From positions 1-63,545 of the IMG/VR virus record IMGVR_UViG_3300022536_000073: DNA of 63,545 bases. One strand, written 5' to 3'. Source of the DNA: a virus (taxonomy: Duplodnaviria; Caudoviricetes). This document shows, piece by piece, positions 38,419 to 44,816 of this stretch. The translations under genes and the position numbers were made by a program. The notes below the pieces were generated by a model, which searched no databases, was not told where the DNA came from, and saw nothing but the letters and a program-made list of their open reading frames with translations. Position 1 is the first letter of the stretch. Each line of letters begins with the position of its first letter.

Positions 38419-38639
38419 TCAATACAAGCGTCGCAGCTAATACACAACCAGGTCACGTATTTTCCGCATTCAGGGCACCAGGAGTACTCTGTTTTATCCC
38501 TATAGATCCAGTTTAACACAGAAGCAAGCACAATAACACCTAAAAGTATCAAAGCGATCTCTGGACTTTCCGTTTCCGGATCACTTGGGAAACGCCTCAT
38601 AGTGGCGTAGGCTTGAGTTAAAGTAAAAGCGTTTAACAT
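38370..38639 (-). CDS. TM plus Cys-rich hypothetical protein
   Basis: Hydrophobic helix and several CxxC motifs. Confidence 0.45.
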   Translation of the reverse strand: MLNAFTLTQAYATMRRFPSDPETESPEIALILLGVIVLASVLNWIYRDKTEYSWCPECGKYVTWLCISCDACIECCGCDRDRDRWKDAA

Positions 38640-38950
38640 TTCAAATACTCATCCACACTCACGGTACTAATCTCTAAGTCTGTGTCTTGGGCCTTTTTGA
38701 CGTATCCAGAATAGACCTCTTCACTCAAATTGGTAAATCCTCGGCAGTTTTTGTGACATTTATATACTGAACCCGACACATTCTTCATGAGGTAGAAATC
38801 TCCATCTTCGATCACTTCCCCTAGGCCAGAAGACAATCGCCACGATTCTCCGCTTAAGTACCCACCTAACCATCCAGCGAGGACTTTATAAACCGGATCT
38901 TTATCGCCATCTTTTATTTTAATGATTTCCCATCTATCAGGTGTGGTCAT
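38633..38950 (-). CDS. conserved phage hypothetical protein
   Basis: PD.W...YKVLAGW.GGYL.GESWRLSSG motif recalled from other phages. Confidence 0.65.
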   Translation of the reverse strand: MTTPDRWEIIKIKDGDKDPVYKVLAGWLGGYLSGESWRLSSGLGEVIEDGDFYLMKNVSGSVYKCHKNCRGFTNLSEEVYSGYVKKAQDTDLEISTVSVDEYLKC

Positions 38951-38954
38951 CTTT

Positions 38955-39245
38955 TTACTCCTTGATCCCTAGAAGTTGATTTACTTCTTTTAAAATCTTA
39001 CGAGCTGAAGTCCCATTGTCGGAGTTAACGAGCATTACATCGCAGCCTTCCTTAGCGGCTCCCTCTGAATCCATCGCGTAAAACTTCAAGCCTTCCTTCA
39101 TCTTCAAAACCGCTTTCACTAATGCTTTGACGGTTTCCTCGTTAGCTTGAGCTCTAAAATACTCGTCTGGGAGCGGATTCTTTGATCCTTTTTCTTCCCA
39201 TTCGCAGGCTTCTAGAAGTTTCTCTAAATCAATCGGTCGGGTCAT
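38955..39245 (-). CDS. hypothetical protein
   Basis: ATGA-coupled ORF. Confidence 0.5.
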   Translation of the reverse strand: MTRPIDLEKLLEACEWEEKGSKNPLPDEYFRAQANEETVKALVKAVLKMKEGLKFYAMDSEGAAKEGCDVMLVNSDNGTSARKILKEVNQLLGIKE

Positions 39246-39454
39246 CGTACCCTCACTTCGTGAGATTTGAGTGGCACCGTGAAGCTTGTGAGATCTTTAG
39301 TTGTGATCTCGGCAAATTTGTTGTCGATGATAACGATATCCAGGACATCAAATTCGACTTTCAAATCTCGTACCTCAACTTCGCTATCTGCCTCCTTTCG
39401 GGTTGAAATATAGCCTTGAAAAATTCCTTGATCAAATTCTAGTGTCTGTTTCAT
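39242..39454 (-). CDS. hypothetical protein
   Basis: ATGA-coupled, AGGAGG RBS. Confidence 0.5.
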   Translation of the reverse strand: MKQTLEFDQGIFQGYISTRKEADSEVEVRDLKVEFDVLDIVIIDNKFAEITTKDLTSFTVPLKSHEVRVR

Positions 39455-39777
39455 CTTTCCTCCTTAAAAAATACCTTTCTTCGCTCATAATCCTCGCGAC
39501 TGATCGGGTTAGGGTGGTCTACCACGAGAAATTCTTGACCGTATTCGTCGTAATCAACCGACAAAACATGCGTAGTTTTCCCCGCAGTTCCGTAGTGAGT
39601 AACTGCACCTGAATCTGACCCGCCGATGGTCTTGACCTCACCTTCGCGAACCATGCGCTTGAATTCTTCCTGGCTTTTAAGTTTTACTCTCATCTTCCCT
39701 TCTCTCACGGAGTCAATCCAAGCGTCACAAATTTCCCAATCAGGGTGATACTCTTTGCAGTGATTGCATTTGTTCAT
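39451..39777 (-). CDS. hypothetical protein
   Basis: ORF downstream of the methyltransferase. Confidence 0.5.
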   Translation of the reverse strand: MNKCNHCKEYHPDWEICDAWIDSVREGKMRVKLKSQEEFKRMVREGEVKTIGGSDSGAVTHYGTAGKTTHVLSVDYDEYGQEFLVVDHPNPISREDYERRKVFFKEER

Positions 39778-39799
39778 CTTTCATCTTCCCTCCACTCTC

Positions 39800-40615
39800 T
39801 TAAACTCGATTACCCAGACCCATCAATCTTTTGAACGCTTCCCGCGCTTGGAGCGGTACCACTGCATTGCCCAAGGCTTTAATTCGGTCCACTCTAAACT
39901 GTATCCCATTAGCCACTCGACCCACGTCGGGTTCAATGGACCAGGGAGGTGCTCCGAAAGCGGTTTTGCGTTCTTTTTCTTGCCCCTCGAGGAGCTTTTC
40001 CAGTCCCGACTTGTTGGCATAGGCCAAAGATTCTTTCGAGCCATTGTTGAAAGGCTCGGTCTGCTTTTCCCTACTCGACCCGCTCCGCCGCCCCGATTCG
40101 TTCCCGCTTCGCTCGCTGCGGGAGTGGGCCAGTAAGAACCACCTTTTTCTAAGGTGTGGGGCTCCAAGTTCTGCGGCAGAAACACACGTCCATCGACAGT
40201 CATACCCCAAATCGGTAAATGCCCCGATGACTTCCTTAAGTCCGCGAGTTCTAATGGCTGGGACGTTTTCGAGAAACACCCAAGGCGAGTTTGTTTCTTC
40301 GACGAGTCGGATAACTTCGAAGAAAAGTCCGCTTCGCCCTCCTTCCAAGCCCTTTCCATGTCCTGCAACGCTAATGTCCTGGCACGGGAACCCTCCGTAA
40401 ACGATGTCCACTCTGGACGATGGAAGATAACTTCCTTTGAGTGTTCGCACGTCATCCCAGATTGGAGCGACGGGCAGTTTCCCTTCTGACATCCTCGACA
40501 AGAGAACGCCTTGACAGTATCGATCGACCTCACAGTAGGCGACGGGTCTGACCCATGGTGCCAAGGCCATGGTGAGTCCTCCGATGCCACTAAATAAATC
40601 CAAGCCATTTAACAC
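39800..40615 (-). CDS. C5-cytosine DNA methyltransferase (alpha polypeptide)
   Basis: DLFSGIGG (I), GGFPCQD (IV), ENV (VI), H.RKRW (VIII) and LGNAV (X); motif IX not evident. Confidence 0.92.
   Translation of the reverse strand: MLNGLDLFSGIGGLTMALAPWVRPVAYCEVDRYCQGVLLSRMSEGKLPVAPIWDDVRTLKGSYLPSSRVDIVYGGFPCQDISVAGHGKGLEGGRSGLFFEVIRLVEETNSPWVFLENVPAIRTRGLKEVIGAFTDLGYDCRWTCVSAAELGAPHLRKRWFLLAHSRSERSGNESGRRSGSSREKQTEPFNNGSKESLAYANKSGLEKLLEGQEKERKTAFGAPPWSIEPDVGRVANGIQFRVDRIKALGNAVVPLQAREAFKRLMGLGNRV
39823..40608 (-). CDS. overlapping +1-frame ORF, putative methyltransferase beta polypeptide
   Basis: 261 stop-free codons; WPTP/WPMPT repeats and motif IX-like LNPTWVEWLMGY..EWT. Confidence 0.65.
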   Translation of the reverse strand: MAWIYLVASEDSPWPWHHGSDPSPTVRSIDTVKAFSCRGCQKGNCPSLQSGMTCEHSKEVIFHRPEWTSFTEGSRARTLALQDMERAWKEGEADFSSKLSDSSKKQTRLGCFSKTSQPLELADLRKSSGHLPIWGMTVDGRVFLPQNLEPHTLEKGGSYWPTPAASEAGTNRGGGAGRVGKSRPSLSTMARKNLWPMPTSRDWKSSSRGKKKNAKPLSEHLPGPLNPTWVEWLMGYSLEWTELKPWAMQWYRSKRGKRSKD

Positions 40616-40815
40616 CCCTCCCCCTTCCTGATCTGCTCATGCTTCCTCTTGAATCTCGAATCAGAGGCTCTTTTCATAATGGACAAGATCTGAGTGAGCG
40701 CGACAAGGAATTCACCGGAGAAAGGTATCTCGTGATTGTGGCATTCTTCCTCGCCGATAGCGTAGCTGTATGAGACCTTATCCCCTTCGAGCTTTAGCGA
40801 CATTTCCAGTTTCAC
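40609..40815 (-). CDS. hypothetical protein
   Basis: Coupled ORF. Confidence 0.5.
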   Translation of the reverse strand: MKLEMSLKLEGDKVSYSYAIGEEECHNHEIPFSGEFLVALTQILSIMKRASDSRFKRKHEQIRKGEGC

Positions 40816-41264
40816 TCACAAGCCCCCTTCCTAATCCGCTCGGCTCGGGCGAGGACTTGGTGGGCCATGGTGCCATCCTCGTATTGAAATTCTGCACCTT
40901 CTGCACCACCACAGAGGATATTAAGTGGCTCTCCGCTAGGGGTTTCAGGTGCATACTCGTCGTCACCACAATACTCAAAATGCGACCCATCTGCGTAATG
41001 GCTTAACCCCTCCCTCAATACCCCATTCTCTCGCTTCAATTTTTCAACTTCCTTTGCCCACTGCTCGGATTGACGAATGAGCCTGGCTTGATTGCGCTCG
41101 TCTTCTTGCTTGAGGGATTTGATTTCTTCTTGCGCTAGCTCCCATGCTTTGTTGAAGCCTTCCTTATATATCCCCTCCCCGACGGTCCAACCACGGTACT
41201 CTGCCAACTTCTCCGCCATCTCGTCCCGCTGCTTTGCAATGTGTTCAGGTAGTTTAGGGGTCAT
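40812..41264 (-). CDS. hypothetical protein
   Basis: Coupled ORF with coiled coil. Confidence 0.55.
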   Translation of the reverse strand: MTPKLPEHIAKQRDEMAEKLAEYRGWTVGEGIYKEGFNKAWELAQEEIKSLKQEDERNQARLIRQSEQWAKEVEKLKRENGVLREGLSHYADGSHFEYCGDDEYAPETPSGEPLNILCGGAEGAEFQYEDGTMAHQVLARAERIRKGACE

Positions 41265-41458
41265 TTTGAATCTCCAGTAGTAGAAAAGGTTTTAAAAGAT
41301 CTTGGTTTACCACAGGTATTGCACATGCCCCCTGTGCCAACATCTTCTAAAGGGCATGTACATTCGGAAATTTCTTTACTCGACGGGCAATAAGGGCACT
41401 CAATAACACTAGGTGCAAATACACGACCGCACTCAGAGCATTTCCAGCCTTCACTCAT
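41261..41458 (-). CDS. zinc-ribbon protein
   Basis: GWKCSECGRVFAP...CPYC. Confidence 0.55.
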   Translation of the reverse strand: MSEGWKCSECGRVFAPSVIECPYCPSSKEISECTCPLEDVGTGGMCNTCGKPRSFKTFSTTGDSK

Positions 41459-41460
41459 TA

Positions 41461-41700
41461 CTACTTCCTTCCATTAAAAATTTTGCACGGGGCCGGGCTT
41501 GCATTCATGTCCGGGTCGCCGGTAAACGTCCAATGAAGAACCAGTCCTACTACAACCAGACCTATCGCTACATACTCCGCTATTTTGGTTTTACCCACCT
41601 TTCTCGAAAGCAAGTACCTCACTACGTCGGTGGTTATCATTATCCCAAGAACACTAAGAACAATCGTGATACCTCTTAATAAAAACTCTTCTATATTCAT
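41461..41700 (-). CDS. two-TM membrane protein
   Basis: Two hydrophobic helices. Confidence 0.55.
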   Translation of the reverse strand: MNIEEFLLRGITIVLSVLGIMITTDVVRYLLSRKVGKTKIAEYVAIGLVVVGLVLHWTFTGDPDMNASPAPCKIFNGRK

Positions 41701-42011
41701 TACTCTTCCCCCTCGTCTTCGCGTTTCTTAATACGCTCTTTTAGGTCCGCAACTCTTTCTTCTGCCTCTTCCAAACGTTCTTTAATTTCTTGATCATCAG
41801 GATACTTACGATGAAGTTTCCGGTAGTGGTACATCTCCTCCTCAGCCTCTCGGAGCAGTCTACGGAGCTCCTGAAGTGAGACTCTCTTCTCTAGTTTAGC
41901 CACAGACTTAACCGAGGCGTGTCTGGCATCTAGAAAAAAGAACCCAGCAAACAGCGTGGCACATAGCCCTAGGACCGCTGAAATCTTTTTTGCGATATCA
42001 CTTATGTTCAT
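41700..42011 (-). CDS. N-terminal TM plus coiled-coil protein
   Basis: Hydrophobic helix followed by heptads. Confidence 0.55.
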   Translation of the reverse strand: MNISDIAKKISAVLGLCATLFAGFFFLDARHASVKSVAKLEKRVSLQELRRLLREAEEEMYHYRKLHRKYPDDQEIKERLEEAEERVADLKERIKKREDEGEE

Positions 42012-42307
42012 TATTCTCGACTCCAGTCAAAAGGTCTAATAACCTTATCTATCACAACTCTTACTCTATATATACCACATGCTCCCTCATCTGTACAGCA
42101 TTTTCTTTGCTTAACTAAACTTTTAATGCTGGGATAGACTGGAGTGTCTGGCATCGCATAACCCAGCTCATGATCAAAGTCCGTAGAGCACATATACCCA
42201 TACCGAACCCCTTCCTCATCTTCGGGACGATCGTCGTCTTTTTCCAAAAAGTCTTTTATGTTATCAATAGCTTCTTGCATGAGCCTATCTTTAATGGACT
42301 TACTCAT
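42011..42307 (-). CDS. hypothetical protein
   Basis: TAATG-coupled ORF. Confidence 0.55.
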   Translation of the reverse strand: MSKSIKDRLMQEAIDNIKDFLEKDDDRPEDEEGVRYGYMCSTDFDHELGYAMPDTPVYPSIKSLVKQRKCCTDEGACGIYRVRVVIDKVIRPFDWSRE

Positions 42308-42752
42308 TCACGTAGTCCTCTCGCTTAGCCCCACATTTCAAACAATCATAGTATTCGTCCAAATGAAAACCTTTGGTTACGGTCCAAGCCTCATCGCACT
42401 CGGGACAGGCTGTCATTGGGTTGACGTATTTTACCCGCTCACCATTAACGGTTTGCCACTCTAACTGCTCAGCAGGCACCGTGTCTTTAGGTGGGATTAG
42501 GTCTTTATTATCGTACTGGATCCTCACGCGCCCATCGTCTAGCGCCCGAATGACTCTAGCTTTAAATCTTCCGTGATCGCAAACGTGCTCAACGTAGTCT
42601 CCCGTACGGAGTTTCCGATTAACTGTTTTCGTATCAGTATCGTCAAGCATGCGTTCGAACTCTTGTAGGAGATCTGAGTCCTCAGTCATAGAGGTAATCT
42701 CTCGACCCCCGATTTTCAGTTTGAAATCTTCTCCTTTTAAGACTTTACCCAT
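42300..42752 (-). CDS. SH3/Tudor-like plus zinc-ribbon hypothetical protein
   Basis: GDYVE..KARVI..VRIQYD and CPEC...CLKC. Confidence 0.5.
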   Translation of the reverse strand: MGKVLKGEDFKLKIGGREITSMTEDSDLLQEFERMLDDTDTKTVNRKLRTGDYVEHVCDHGRFKARVIRALDDGRVRIQYDNKDLIPPKDTVPAEQLEWQTVNGERVKYVNPMTACPECDEAWTVTKGFHLDEYYDCLKCGAKREDYVNE

Positions 42753-42802
42753 GTTTCGCTCGCTTTCTATAACAGAATACTCTAATTAGAGAATGATGCA
42801 AA

Positions 42803-43348
42803 CTATTTTTTGAGAGCCTCATCTAGAACCTCTCTTTTAGTCTTCCTGCGGCCCGATCCCCCGTAAATATCCACTATAACTTTATCCTCAATAGAAGACT
42901 TTTCAAAGGCTTTTAAAAAATCTAACTGCTCGCCTTCTCTTCGAAAGTAATCCAAACAATCGGGATCCTCGGACCAAGAGGAGTCGATTAGCAAAACCAT
43001 ACGCATATTAGAGGTGTCATATTGACGCTCTAAGTCGAAAATATAGTCCCCAGAATACTCGAAGTATTTGGGGGCGTATGCTACTTCTTTGAGGTGTCCG
43101 CCATCAAGCATTAATCTATAACCCCCTTCAACCATCTCAAAGACTTGTCTGTGGTGTTTAGTAGCGAACATATATTCGTTAGGTGCGACGATTTCCTTAT
43201 TTTTCGCATAATAGTTTAAGTGTTTTGGTCCCATATAGTCTATTTTTGTAAAATACCCCAACTCATCCATCAGGTTATTAGCAAGCGAAGTCTTTCCGAG
43301 ATAGCTAACACCATCTACATACCAGGTTCTGGGAGTTTTATTACTCAT
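42803..43348 (-). CDS. nucleoside monophosphate (thymidylate-like) kinase
   Basis: P-loop VDGVSYLGKTSL; LD..H..E..Y motif. Confidence 0.7.
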   Translation of the reverse strand: MSNKTPRTWYVDGVSYLGKTSLANNLMDELGYFTKIDYMGPKHLNYYAKNKEIVAPNEYMFATKHHRQVFEMVEGGYRLMLDGGHLKEVAYAPKYFEYSGDYIFDLERQYDTSNMRMVLLIDSSWSEDPDCLDYFRREGEQLDFLKAFEKSSIEDKVIVDIYGGSGRRKTKREVLDEALKK

Positions 43349-43430: not shown

Positions 43431-44816
43431 ATGAGTAAAGTGGATTCTAGTTTAAAAATTTATTTAACGAAGTTGAACAACGAGCCTCTTTTAACTAAAG
43501 CGGAAGAGGACGCCTTATTAGCCAATATCGAGAAATATCAAAACGCGATTTTATGGGAATGCGTCTCATCTACTGTATTTAGAGGGGAGTTATTTGACCT
43601 ACTCACCTCCAAAAAAGTTCAAGACATCGTCAAAATTTCACGAAAGCTGAACGATACATCCTCAAAACAAGACGTTAAGGAAGTTAAAGAGGCTTTAAAA
43701 AGTTTAATCAAAACCTTATCTACCAAATCTGTGAAAGCAGGGATCAAACGAGATCTGAAGAAGATCGGCTTATCGGGAACCTTGGTACACGCCCTGGTCC
43801 TGCGTATTAAAAAGAAGTATGTAAAAATAGATGAGCATGAGTTAGCCTTGAAACGTTTACTCACCTACTTCGAAGCTGAGAACCCTACACAGCTAGAGGA
43901 GATAATTCACAAGATTCAAAACGAGGACCTTGCTAAGAAGTTTTATGCTTTGAAATTTACGACATCCGAGCAGAGGTTGTTAAGTAGGGTGCATGACTAT
44001 AAAGAGTATCTCAAAGAAGAGAAAGCTCTAGCGTCTTTGGAGATAGACGGAGCGAATAAAGAAGACGTTAAAAAACTATACAAATCTATTGTGAGTAATG
44101 AAGAGCGGATGCAGTCTTATAAAGAGGAGCTAGTGCGTCGAAATTTGAGATTAGTAGTTTCAAGAGCCAAAAAGTTTAATAATAGAGGTCTGGAATTTGA
44201 GGACCTAATCCAGGAGGGGAATATCGGGTTAATCAAGGCCATTAATAAACACGATTCCTCACGAGGAACCAAAGTAGCGACCTACGCTACGTGGTGGATT
44301 GACCAAGCTATCCGTAGGGCAATATCTAATAAAGCTAGGACCGTCCGGATCCCTACCCACATTGAGTTCCTACAGACTCAATTAGCAGCAGCAACTACTG
44401 CATTGACTGGGGAACTGGGGAGACCCCCCAAAAAGTGGGAGCTAGCCGATCGGGTTGGGGTTTCTGTAGAGGTCTTGGAAAAACTAGATCAAGCCGCCGT
44501 TCACAAAGTTGGTATGGATGATGAAATGCCAAGCGGGTATACTATGGCAGAGCTGTTAGCTTCTGATCCAGACGACAACCCGTTCCGAATTGCTTCTAAA
44601 AAGATTTTGCGAGACCGTATTAAAACGGTTTTAGGCACTCTATCCCCCCGAACTGAGAAAATCATTCGACTTAGGTTTGGGATCGGGGAGGCTCGAGAGG
44701 GTATGACTTTACAAGAGTTGGCAAATGCTTTAGGCATCACTAAAATGGGCGTTAAGGTCGTCCAAAGTAGTGGGTTGAAGAAAATGAAAAAAAAGGGGAA
44801 CCTAAATGAATTCTGA
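43431..44816 (+). CDS. RpoD-like sigma70 factor lacking region 1.1
   Basis: Region 1.2 (YL....PLLT..EE), non-conserved region, [30 protein letters not shown] and region 4 IIRLRFG. Confidence 0.92.

Follow-up and report, generated by a model that had tools for sequence, protein, structure and literature searches.

The window analysed here is the complete virus record IMGVR_UViG_3300022536_000073 (Duplodnaviria; Caudoviricetes) at its full length of 63,545 bases. On the minus strand it carries a gene that probably encodes a two-chain phage DNA cytosine-5 (C5) methyltransferase, in design akin to M.EcoHK31I and M.AquI. Two open reading frames (ORFs) run through this gene. Frame A, the candidate alpha chain, occupies 39800..40615, starts with GTG and encodes 271 amino acids (aa). 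Frame B, the candidate beta chain, occupies 39823..40608, starts with ATG and encodes 261 aa; the stop codon is counted in both spans. Frame B is in +1 relative to frame A, and its start locates 7 nucleotides (nt) downstream of the start of A. The first-pass annotation, which was made from the sequence alone, had claimed two nearly fully overlapping ORFs, and both are present on the minus strand at these coordinates in the ORF list.

The +1 frame of the gene is depleted of stop codons. Across the B span in the window gene, 0 stops were found in the +1 frame and 13 in the +2 frame. In 5000 synonymous-codon shuffles that kept protein A, the +1 frame contained 6.0 stops on average (standard deviation 1.7), and the mean for the +2 frame was 12.7. 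Because only 2 of the 5000 shuffles reached 0 stops in +1, the open +1 frame goes beyond chance. The first-pass annotation had named a check for its claim, namely whether homologs too are depleted of stop codons in the +1 frame, and its outcome was strongly positive. With protein A alone as the query, 80 viral loci were retrieved, with 48–71% identity by the best tblastn segment. The stop count over 71 viral loci (13 loci were dropped by the start rule) gave a mean of 1.9 stops in +1 versus 16.4 in +2, and the median open fraction was 0.98 versus 0.19. When 72 loci were shuffled synonymously, 1.17 stops were observed in +1 versus 8.07 under the null (p ≤ 0.005 in 67 of the 72), and the +2 frame of the viral loci had 15.4 observed versus 14.5 under the null. 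The depletion extends over the part of the gene that encodes the catalytic motifs. From codon 7 of A to motif VIII, the +1 frame had 0.15 stops versus 3.7 expected, and no stop at all in 46 of 53 loci; the other 24 of the 77 distinct genes were dropped from this test, as the motif VIII pattern failed in them. Eighty loci from bacterial and archaeal assemblies, retrieved with the A alignment, had 1.65 stops in +1 versus 11.9 in +2. Two canonical single-chain C5 methyltransferase genes, which served as controls, contained 9 and 5 +1 stops over motifs I–VIII.

The frame under selection changes along the gene. For the 77 distinct genes, the translation of each frame was aligned and the mean pairwise identity was calculated per 15-codon window. 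Over codons 1–135, the identity in A (0.41–0.79) was far above that in B (0.22–0.49), which was close to the +2 control (0.16–0.46). Over codons 136–165, both A (0.61–0.70) and B (0.48–0.49) exceeded the control (0.32–0.36). Over codons 166–225, B (0.15–0.19) was above A (0.06–0.12), and A was at the level of the control (0.04–0.11). At codons 226–240 the identity was highest in B (0.60, versus 0.39 in A and 0.32 in +2), and at codons 241–255 it was highest in A (0.68, versus 0.43 in B and 0.33 in +2). The variability of codon positions 1, 2 and 3 was 0.33, 0.24 and 0.58 when codons 7–130 were read by A, and 0.57, 0.55 and 0.70 when codons 166–225 were read by B. The corresponding values were 0.33, 0.29 and 0.49 for codons 226–240 read by B, and 0.32, 0.20 and 0.49 for codons 241–255 read by A. 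Within codons 226–240, variability is lowest at the third position of A (0.30) and highest at that of B (0.49).

Because the identity windows and the most variable codon position agree, these alignments indicate that the gene is a mosaic, in which A is selected over codons 1–135, B over codons 166–240 and A again over codons 241–270. Constraint in both frames is limited to about 30–45 codons, around motif VIII and the junction of motifs IX and X. Outside the doubly constrained codons, the comparisons indicate that the non-selected frame is merely kept free of stops. Frame A had 0 stops versus 2.5 expected across the B-selected region (shuffle null, 50 loci), and the third frame had 3.3 versus 3.1 expected there. 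The earlier suggestion that about 780 nt are potentially dual-coding holds in so far as both frames are open, but two selected sequences coincide only over those 30–45 codons.

The protein of frame A carries C5 methyltransferase motifs I, IV, VI, VIII and X in one chain. Motif I (LDLFSGIGG, 40577..40603, minus strand as for all features of the gene) is the motif for S-adenosylmethionine (AdoMet) binding, motif IV (YGGFPCQDIS, 40370..40399) contains the catalytic Cys78, and motif VI (WVFLENV) maps to 40262..40282. Motif VIII, GAPHLRKRWFLLA (40127..40165, including HLRKRWFLLA), overlaps the first conserved block of B. Motif X, RVDRIKALGNAVVPLQ (39848..39895, including ALGNAVVP), has invariant L248, G249 and N250. 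Across 68 A sequences, F8, G10, P77, C78, Q79, E116, N117, R158, G249 and N250 are invariant. The bases of motif IV read SRARTL in B as a by-product, and conservation of B in the motif IV zone is no different from the +2 control. Frame A matches Pfam PF00145 with an E-value of 1.5e-37 and a score of 130.2 bits, above the cut-off of 22, only over residues 3–216 (profile positions 2–216 of 324). It also matches TIGR00675 (7.8e-29; 101.3 bits, above the cut-off of 100.65) and, over residues 3–267, phrog_363 (1e-60).

Between motifs VIII and X, frame A has a linker at residues 166–235 (39911..40120) that is rich in S, E, G, R and K, open and unconserved. An AlphaFold2 model of frame A was built with 68 relatives, and the predicted local distance difference test (pLDDT) score was averaged per 10-residue block. 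The predicted template modelling score was 0.73, and the blocks of residues 1–170 were mostly above 90 except at the catalytic loop. The block means fell to 42–56 across residues 171–240, the linker zone, and the C-terminal helices 241–250 and 254–265 lie in blocks averaging 79, 94 and 87. In a Foldseek search, the top matches of the model were M.HhaI and M.HaeIII, over about 171 columns with E-values of about 1e-13, which covers the large domain only (M.HhaI: 4.6e-14, 171 columns, root mean square deviation 3.8). The model thus assigns frame A the large-domain fold of C5 methyltransferases. The first-pass annotation had noted no recognisable target recognition domain (TRD) or motif IX in frame A, and this is borne out: the interval from motif VIII to motif X contains only the linker of about 70 residues, which is unconserved, modelled with low confidence and only partly covered by the Pfam match.

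The selected part of frame B begins with the block HLPIWGMTVDGRVFLPQ (GM..G block, 40171..40221), in which G135 and G140 are invariant among 22 B proteins and conservation is above the +2 control. It is followed by a recognition-type region (39937..40134) with two PTP modules (YWPTPAAS... and LWPMPTS...), where P161, T162 and P196 are invariant. The end of B is a motif-IX-like segment, LNPTWVEWLMGYSLEWTEL (39880..39936), whose bases read EPDVGRVANGIQFRVDRIK in A. Motif X of A stands directly after the segment shared by LNPTWVEWLMGYSLEWTEL and EPDVGRVANGIQFRVDRIK. Earlier, TRD-like repeats and an IX-like segment had been proposed in B just before motif X of A. The repeats and the segment were found again, but the segment shares nucleotides with the pre-X segment EPDVGRVANGIQFRVDRIK rather than simply preceding motif X.

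Frame B has numerous relatives. In a database of 5.8 billion proteins, the matches to B at E ≤ 1e-3 comprise 1639 predicted proteins; among the best 120 of these, 68–100% of B is covered at 36–59% identity, and a Pfam domain was found in none. The relatives begin with MAWIYL and differ by whole PTP modules. A B protein has from 1 to at least 6 modules, whole units of 30–40 residues having been gained or lost in frame, and the length of the frame A linker tracks the module number of B. A profile of 82 B sequences matched 43,186 cluster representatives at E ≤ 1e-3, 24,714 at 1e-10 and 5,057 at 1e-30. Frame B also matches phrog_1008, annotated as DNA methyltransferase (4.2e-14, residues 65–211), and phrog_26627, a family of 71 positions and unknown function (1.5e-7), the latter over residues 222–251, which is the IX-like piece only (39880–39945 in the window). 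As a separate observation, phrog_26627 may gather small annotated ORFs comparable to the short beta chain of M.EcoHK31I. Fused single-chain forms were sought by comparing B residues 125–261 with longer proteins, and none of the 6 matches has a Pfam domain; fused forms of 143–457 aa could lie among the B matches beyond the best 120 of the 1639.

The same arrangement was found in other phages. A tblastn search with B matched 10 phage records, and every matched site was also matched by A in the other frame. In all ten records that were inspected, which come from distant hosts, a gene with motifs I–VIII and X also bears, in its +1 frame, the GM..NG block, the PTP modules and the IX-like segment. 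They are Synechococcus phage S-H1, Acinetobacter phage ABMM1, Lacticaseibacillus phage R9.1, Mycobacterium phage Che9d, Microcystis phage Mel-JY01, Salmonella phage S9-5, Virus Rctr197k (where frame A rests on the tblastn match), Phage C72C1 and two uncultured podoviruses. Only frame A is annotated in nine of the ten, and only frame B in Virus Rctr197k. In that record (KX853510.1, locus 677–1357), the depositors annotated B as a 'conserved hypothetical protein', the reverse of the other nine. Among the loci of bacterial and archaeal assemblies, the IX-like pattern was found in the +1 ORF of 57 of 80. When 171 loci were classified, 131 had the IX-like segment in +1 together with motif X in frame 0, and 12 fell into classes other than this one and the one with motif X in frame 0 and no IX match, which is given below.

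Several relatives depart from the arrangement of the window gene. In a locus of a cyanobacterial assembly (L172; G001:C216, 585–1889, minus strand), frame A ends past motif VIII after 186 aa, and a +1 ORF of 435 aa encodes, all in one frame, five LPTP modules followed by the IX-like segment and motif X (RLKALGNAVVP). Similarly, in locus L133 (539–1768), frame A ends past motif VIII after 233 aa, and a +1 ORF of 410 aa carries modules, the IX-like segment and motif X. Since A ends after motif VIII in these two loci, translation of B would be needed there for a working enzyme. Since the IX-like segment and motif X follow each other in one frame in both, the segment is anchored by its position before motif X. 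In L171, B has six modules, and motif X is read in A and lies downstream of where B ends. Two further loci, L095 and L112, were considered as single-chain forms and were ruled out: motif X is in the third frame and the IX-like segment is in the frame of motif IV. L112 is also without motif VIII. Both look like indel or deletion derivatives and are probably decayed copies or assembly errors. Two loci have a single in-frame stop in A and an intact B. In L119 the stop stands ahead of motif VIII, and in L128 it lies within the linker, with an ATG and a motif X piece immediately behind it.

The two starts of the window gene lie 7 nt apart. The start region (40605..40640) reads, in order, AGGAAGGGGGAGGGG, GTG (the A start), TTAA and ATG (the B start), so that the purine-rich run AGGAAGGGGGAGGGG is ahead of both starts. 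Among the relatives, the ATG of B was found from −5 to +13 nt of the A start in 59 of 83 loci, with an offset of 7 nt in 29 and of 4 nt in 15. The consensus around both starts (57 loci) is aTg.T.AATGGCTTGGAT. GGAG or GAGG cores are mostly 9–12 nt before the ATG of B, which is 2–5 nt before the A start. An ORF of 68 aa is located upstream of the window gene, and its TAA stop abuts the ATG of B. Coupling of B translation to this abutting gene was considered; the abutment is true of the window gene and is no family feature. A stop directly before the ATG of B was found in 37 loci, and in 8 of the 37 the same frame has an upstream ORF of at least 50 aa.

A two-chain enzyme could be built from these parts as follows. 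Frame A would give the alpha chain, with a large domain for AdoMet binding and catalysis (motifs I, IV with Cys78, VI and VIII), a floppy linker of 70 residues and the helices of motif X. Frame B would give the beta chain, translated from the ATG 7 nt after the A start. Its first 125 residues or so would be an unselected leader dictated by A, and its last 135 or so a small DNA-recognition domain with the GM..G block, the two PTP modules, which may take part in target choice, and the IX-like end. Alpha and beta would assemble as in M.EcoHK31I and M.AquI, and the assembled enzyme would methylate the phage DNA, presumably as protection from host restriction.

Several observations weigh against this two-chain reading. 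The N-terminal stretch of B, some 125 residues long, shows no residue-level selection, which makes it an odd thing for the cell to translate, and several distant phages have B open only from about codon 25–60 on. The Shine-Dalgarno spacing is clean for neither the A start nor the ATG of B. RefSeq annotates frame A alone in E. coli prophages, and 28 of the 171 loci have motif X in frame 0 and no match to the IX pattern used. No Pfam match was obtained for B, for the 82 B relatives or for three B proteins of other layouts (including those bearing IX and X), and an NCBIfam search of B gave no family. The label of motif IX for the end of B rests on position and on likeness by eye: LNPTWVEWLMGYSLEWTEL resembles the motif IX stretches LNVREYARIQAFPDSW and ITVREMARLHGFPDWF of two canonical enzymes, and profile methods gave no confirmation; a hidden Markov model of the IX-like segment produced no alignment at motif IX of two canonical enzymes. 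The AlphaFold2 model of B alone was poor, with a mean pLDDT of 58 and residues 1–71 below 50. With this poor model, Foldseek found nothing in the PDB at E ≤ 0.001 and VIA-align found only long-helix matches (Z ≤ 3.7), results that are uninformative on the fold either way. The B profile found nothing relevant among PDB sequences at E ≤ 10, and an ESM Atlas search with B gave no usable match.

The same two-chain enzyme could be made if translation of beta began from a start codon inside the gene, a short way ahead of the GM..G block, leaving the long 5' part of B untranslated. This would fit the N-terminal stretch of B (about 125 residues), which shows no more selection than the +2 control and is predicted to be disordered, and likewise the phages S-H1, R9.1, Che9d and C72C1, in which B is closed near the 5' end and internal ATGs are present. 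Internal methionines also served as beta starts in M.EcoHK31I, according to the parts of PMC2836561 that were available. However, an untranslated 5' part need not be free of stops, and 0.15 stops were found there versus 3.7 expected, with zero in 46 of 53 loci; moreover, an ATG stands no more than 13 nt from the A start in 59 of 83 loci. An internal start is therefore considered rather unlikely. A single chain made by two programmed frameshifts, one of +1 past motif VIII and one of −1 on the way from the IX-like segment to motif X, would restore the canonical order of motifs I–VIII, TRD, IX and X; in a canonical enzyme, two changes of frame would yield the selected order A, B, A. Such a mechanism needs neither an open B for 135 codons upstream nor an open A through the linker, yet both are open. 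When the window was read by eye (with no formal scan of homologs), no zero-frame stop was seen at the A-to-B zone and no slippery X_XXY_YYZ heptamer at the B-to-A zone. The distance from IX to X varies from 14 to 431 nt among loci with this layout, L172 and L133 need no second shift, and the available part of a recoding review presents no such case. Double frameshifting is thus highly improbable. The first-pass annotation had listed internal initiation and frameshifting as alternatives; the former keeps some probability, and the latter is unlikely, as both frames stay open far past the switch points.

Two other explanations deny B a part in the enzyme. If only frame A were functional, as a methyltransferase without TRD or as an inactive relic, B would be the untranslated shadow of an ancestral frame. 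This would agree with the databases, which annotate A alone in nine of ten phage records and in E. coli, and with the lack of a Pfam or NCBIfam family for B. But a shadow frame would gather stops, and B does not, either in the loci of 48–71% identity or in distant phages. At codons 226–240 it is the third position of A that varies least and that of B that varies most, and whole PTP modules are gained and lost in frame in B. An enzyme of A alone is therefore very unlikely. Alternatively, B could be a protein with its own unrelated function, for example in DNA binding or anti-defence, that was overprinted on the methyltransferase gene, in favour of which B gave no family or fold match. However, B was seen only together with this methyltransferase frame, since all ten phage records matched by B are matched by A at the same place. 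It fills exactly the gap of A between motifs VIII and X, and it runs on into motif X in L172 and L133. There is accordingly little chance, about as little as for double frameshifting, that B acts independently of A.

The two-chain methyltransferase that is preferred here resembles known enzymes in part. The target sites are YGGCCR for M.EcoHK31I of E. coli and CYCGRG for M.AquI, and the beta chain of M.EcoHK31I has 61 aa. The comparison with M.EcoHK31I, which the first-pass annotation had drawn, is apt as far as the available parts of the literature go: both M.AquI and M.EcoHK31I are two-polypeptide enzymes (PMC3404938), and M.EcoHK31I requires both of its chains, the beta chain being encoded within alpha in a different frame (PMC2836561). 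The alpha chain of M.EcoHK31I has motifs I–VIII, motif X and the TRD, and its beta chain has motif IX (PMC2836561, PMC3404938, in the same parts). As with M.EcoHK31I, the alpha gene of the window harbours, in a different frame, a further ORF that is kept by selection, and here this ORF contains the IX-like segment. In contrast to M.EcoHK31I, where the TRD is in alpha, the conserved recognition-type region of the window gene is in B and alpha has an unconserved linker. Furthermore, B spans 261 of the 271 codons and starts 7 nt past A. The two systems are likened here by layout. M.AquI, as far as its available description goes, is split after motif VIII or in the variable region. L172 and L133 share this design, with alpha carrying I–VIII and beta carrying the modules, IX and X. 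The window gene is not split in this way, as its motif X belongs to the alpha frame, where it overlaps the end of the IX-like segment, and its ORFs overlap over nearly the whole length, whereas those of M.AquI are mostly consecutive. The canonical monomers M.HhaI and M.HaeIII (PF00145) share the large-domain fold and motifs I, IV, VI, VIII and X with frame A. However, the canonical enzymes consist of one chain in one frame, and the two control genes had 5–9 +1 stops over motifs I–VIII versus 0 in the window gene. New with respect to the known two-chain enzymes are the location of the whole recognition region in the second frame, of motif X in the first, and the near-complete overlap of the ORFs. 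A literature search, outside which most subscription journals lay, found no description of this layout for phage C5 methyltransferases, and the available parts of PMC5009743, PMC8256090 and PMC3711429 contain none.

The methyltransferase gene has 53% G+C, versus about 44% for the genome. It sits among small minus-strand ORFs (38633–43348), and 11 of the 13 ORFs scanned there are without a PHROG match. One ORF of this run (41700–42011) matches phrog_1009, of unknown function (1.4e-4), and another (42803–43348) has a weak thymidylate-kinase-like match (phrog_761, 3.7e-5). On the plus strand, an ORF of 461 aa (43431–44816) matches phage RNA polymerase sigma-factor families (phrog_351, 7.6e-59) and is divergent from the minus-strand block that holds the methyltransferase.

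The balance tips slightly towards a wider reading, in which all short phage and prophage C5 methyltransferases of the phrog_363 type are obligate two-chain, two-frame enzymes with a full-length, leader-bearing beta chain, a specificity set by the modules and an AquI-like origin. The B ORFs would then number tens of thousands of cluster representatives. The leader of about 125 residues would owe its existence solely to the need for translation to begin at the 5' ribosome site that both chains share, and exchangeable PTP modules in beta, variable in number, would determine the target specificity. The layout would have arisen by an M.AquI-like split, after which motif X would have been recaptured into the alpha frame. 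Between the designs of M.AquI and M.EcoHK31I, the relatives that have motif X in one frame or the other would stand as a series of intermediates.

Should the two-chain reading be true, mis-annotation would affect a class of 'DNA cytosine methyltransferase' genes that is very common in phages and prophages, the DNA-recognition half being left unannotated in the +1 frame. Prediction of methylation specificity would then have to use the second frame, and so would the engineering of these enzymes as natural split methyltransferases, a use to which M.EcoHK31I has been put as a naturally split enzyme (PMC2836561, in its available parts). Gene finders and frameshift detectors would also have to allow for such loci. 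The family would further be a natural, deeply conserved case of a same-strand overlap of nearly full length, with selection on each segment confined to a single frame, and it could serve as a test of theories of overlapping genes. If the wider reading also holds, these overlaps would be among the longest and most widespread conserved same-strand overlaps of DNA phages, missed by standard annotation.

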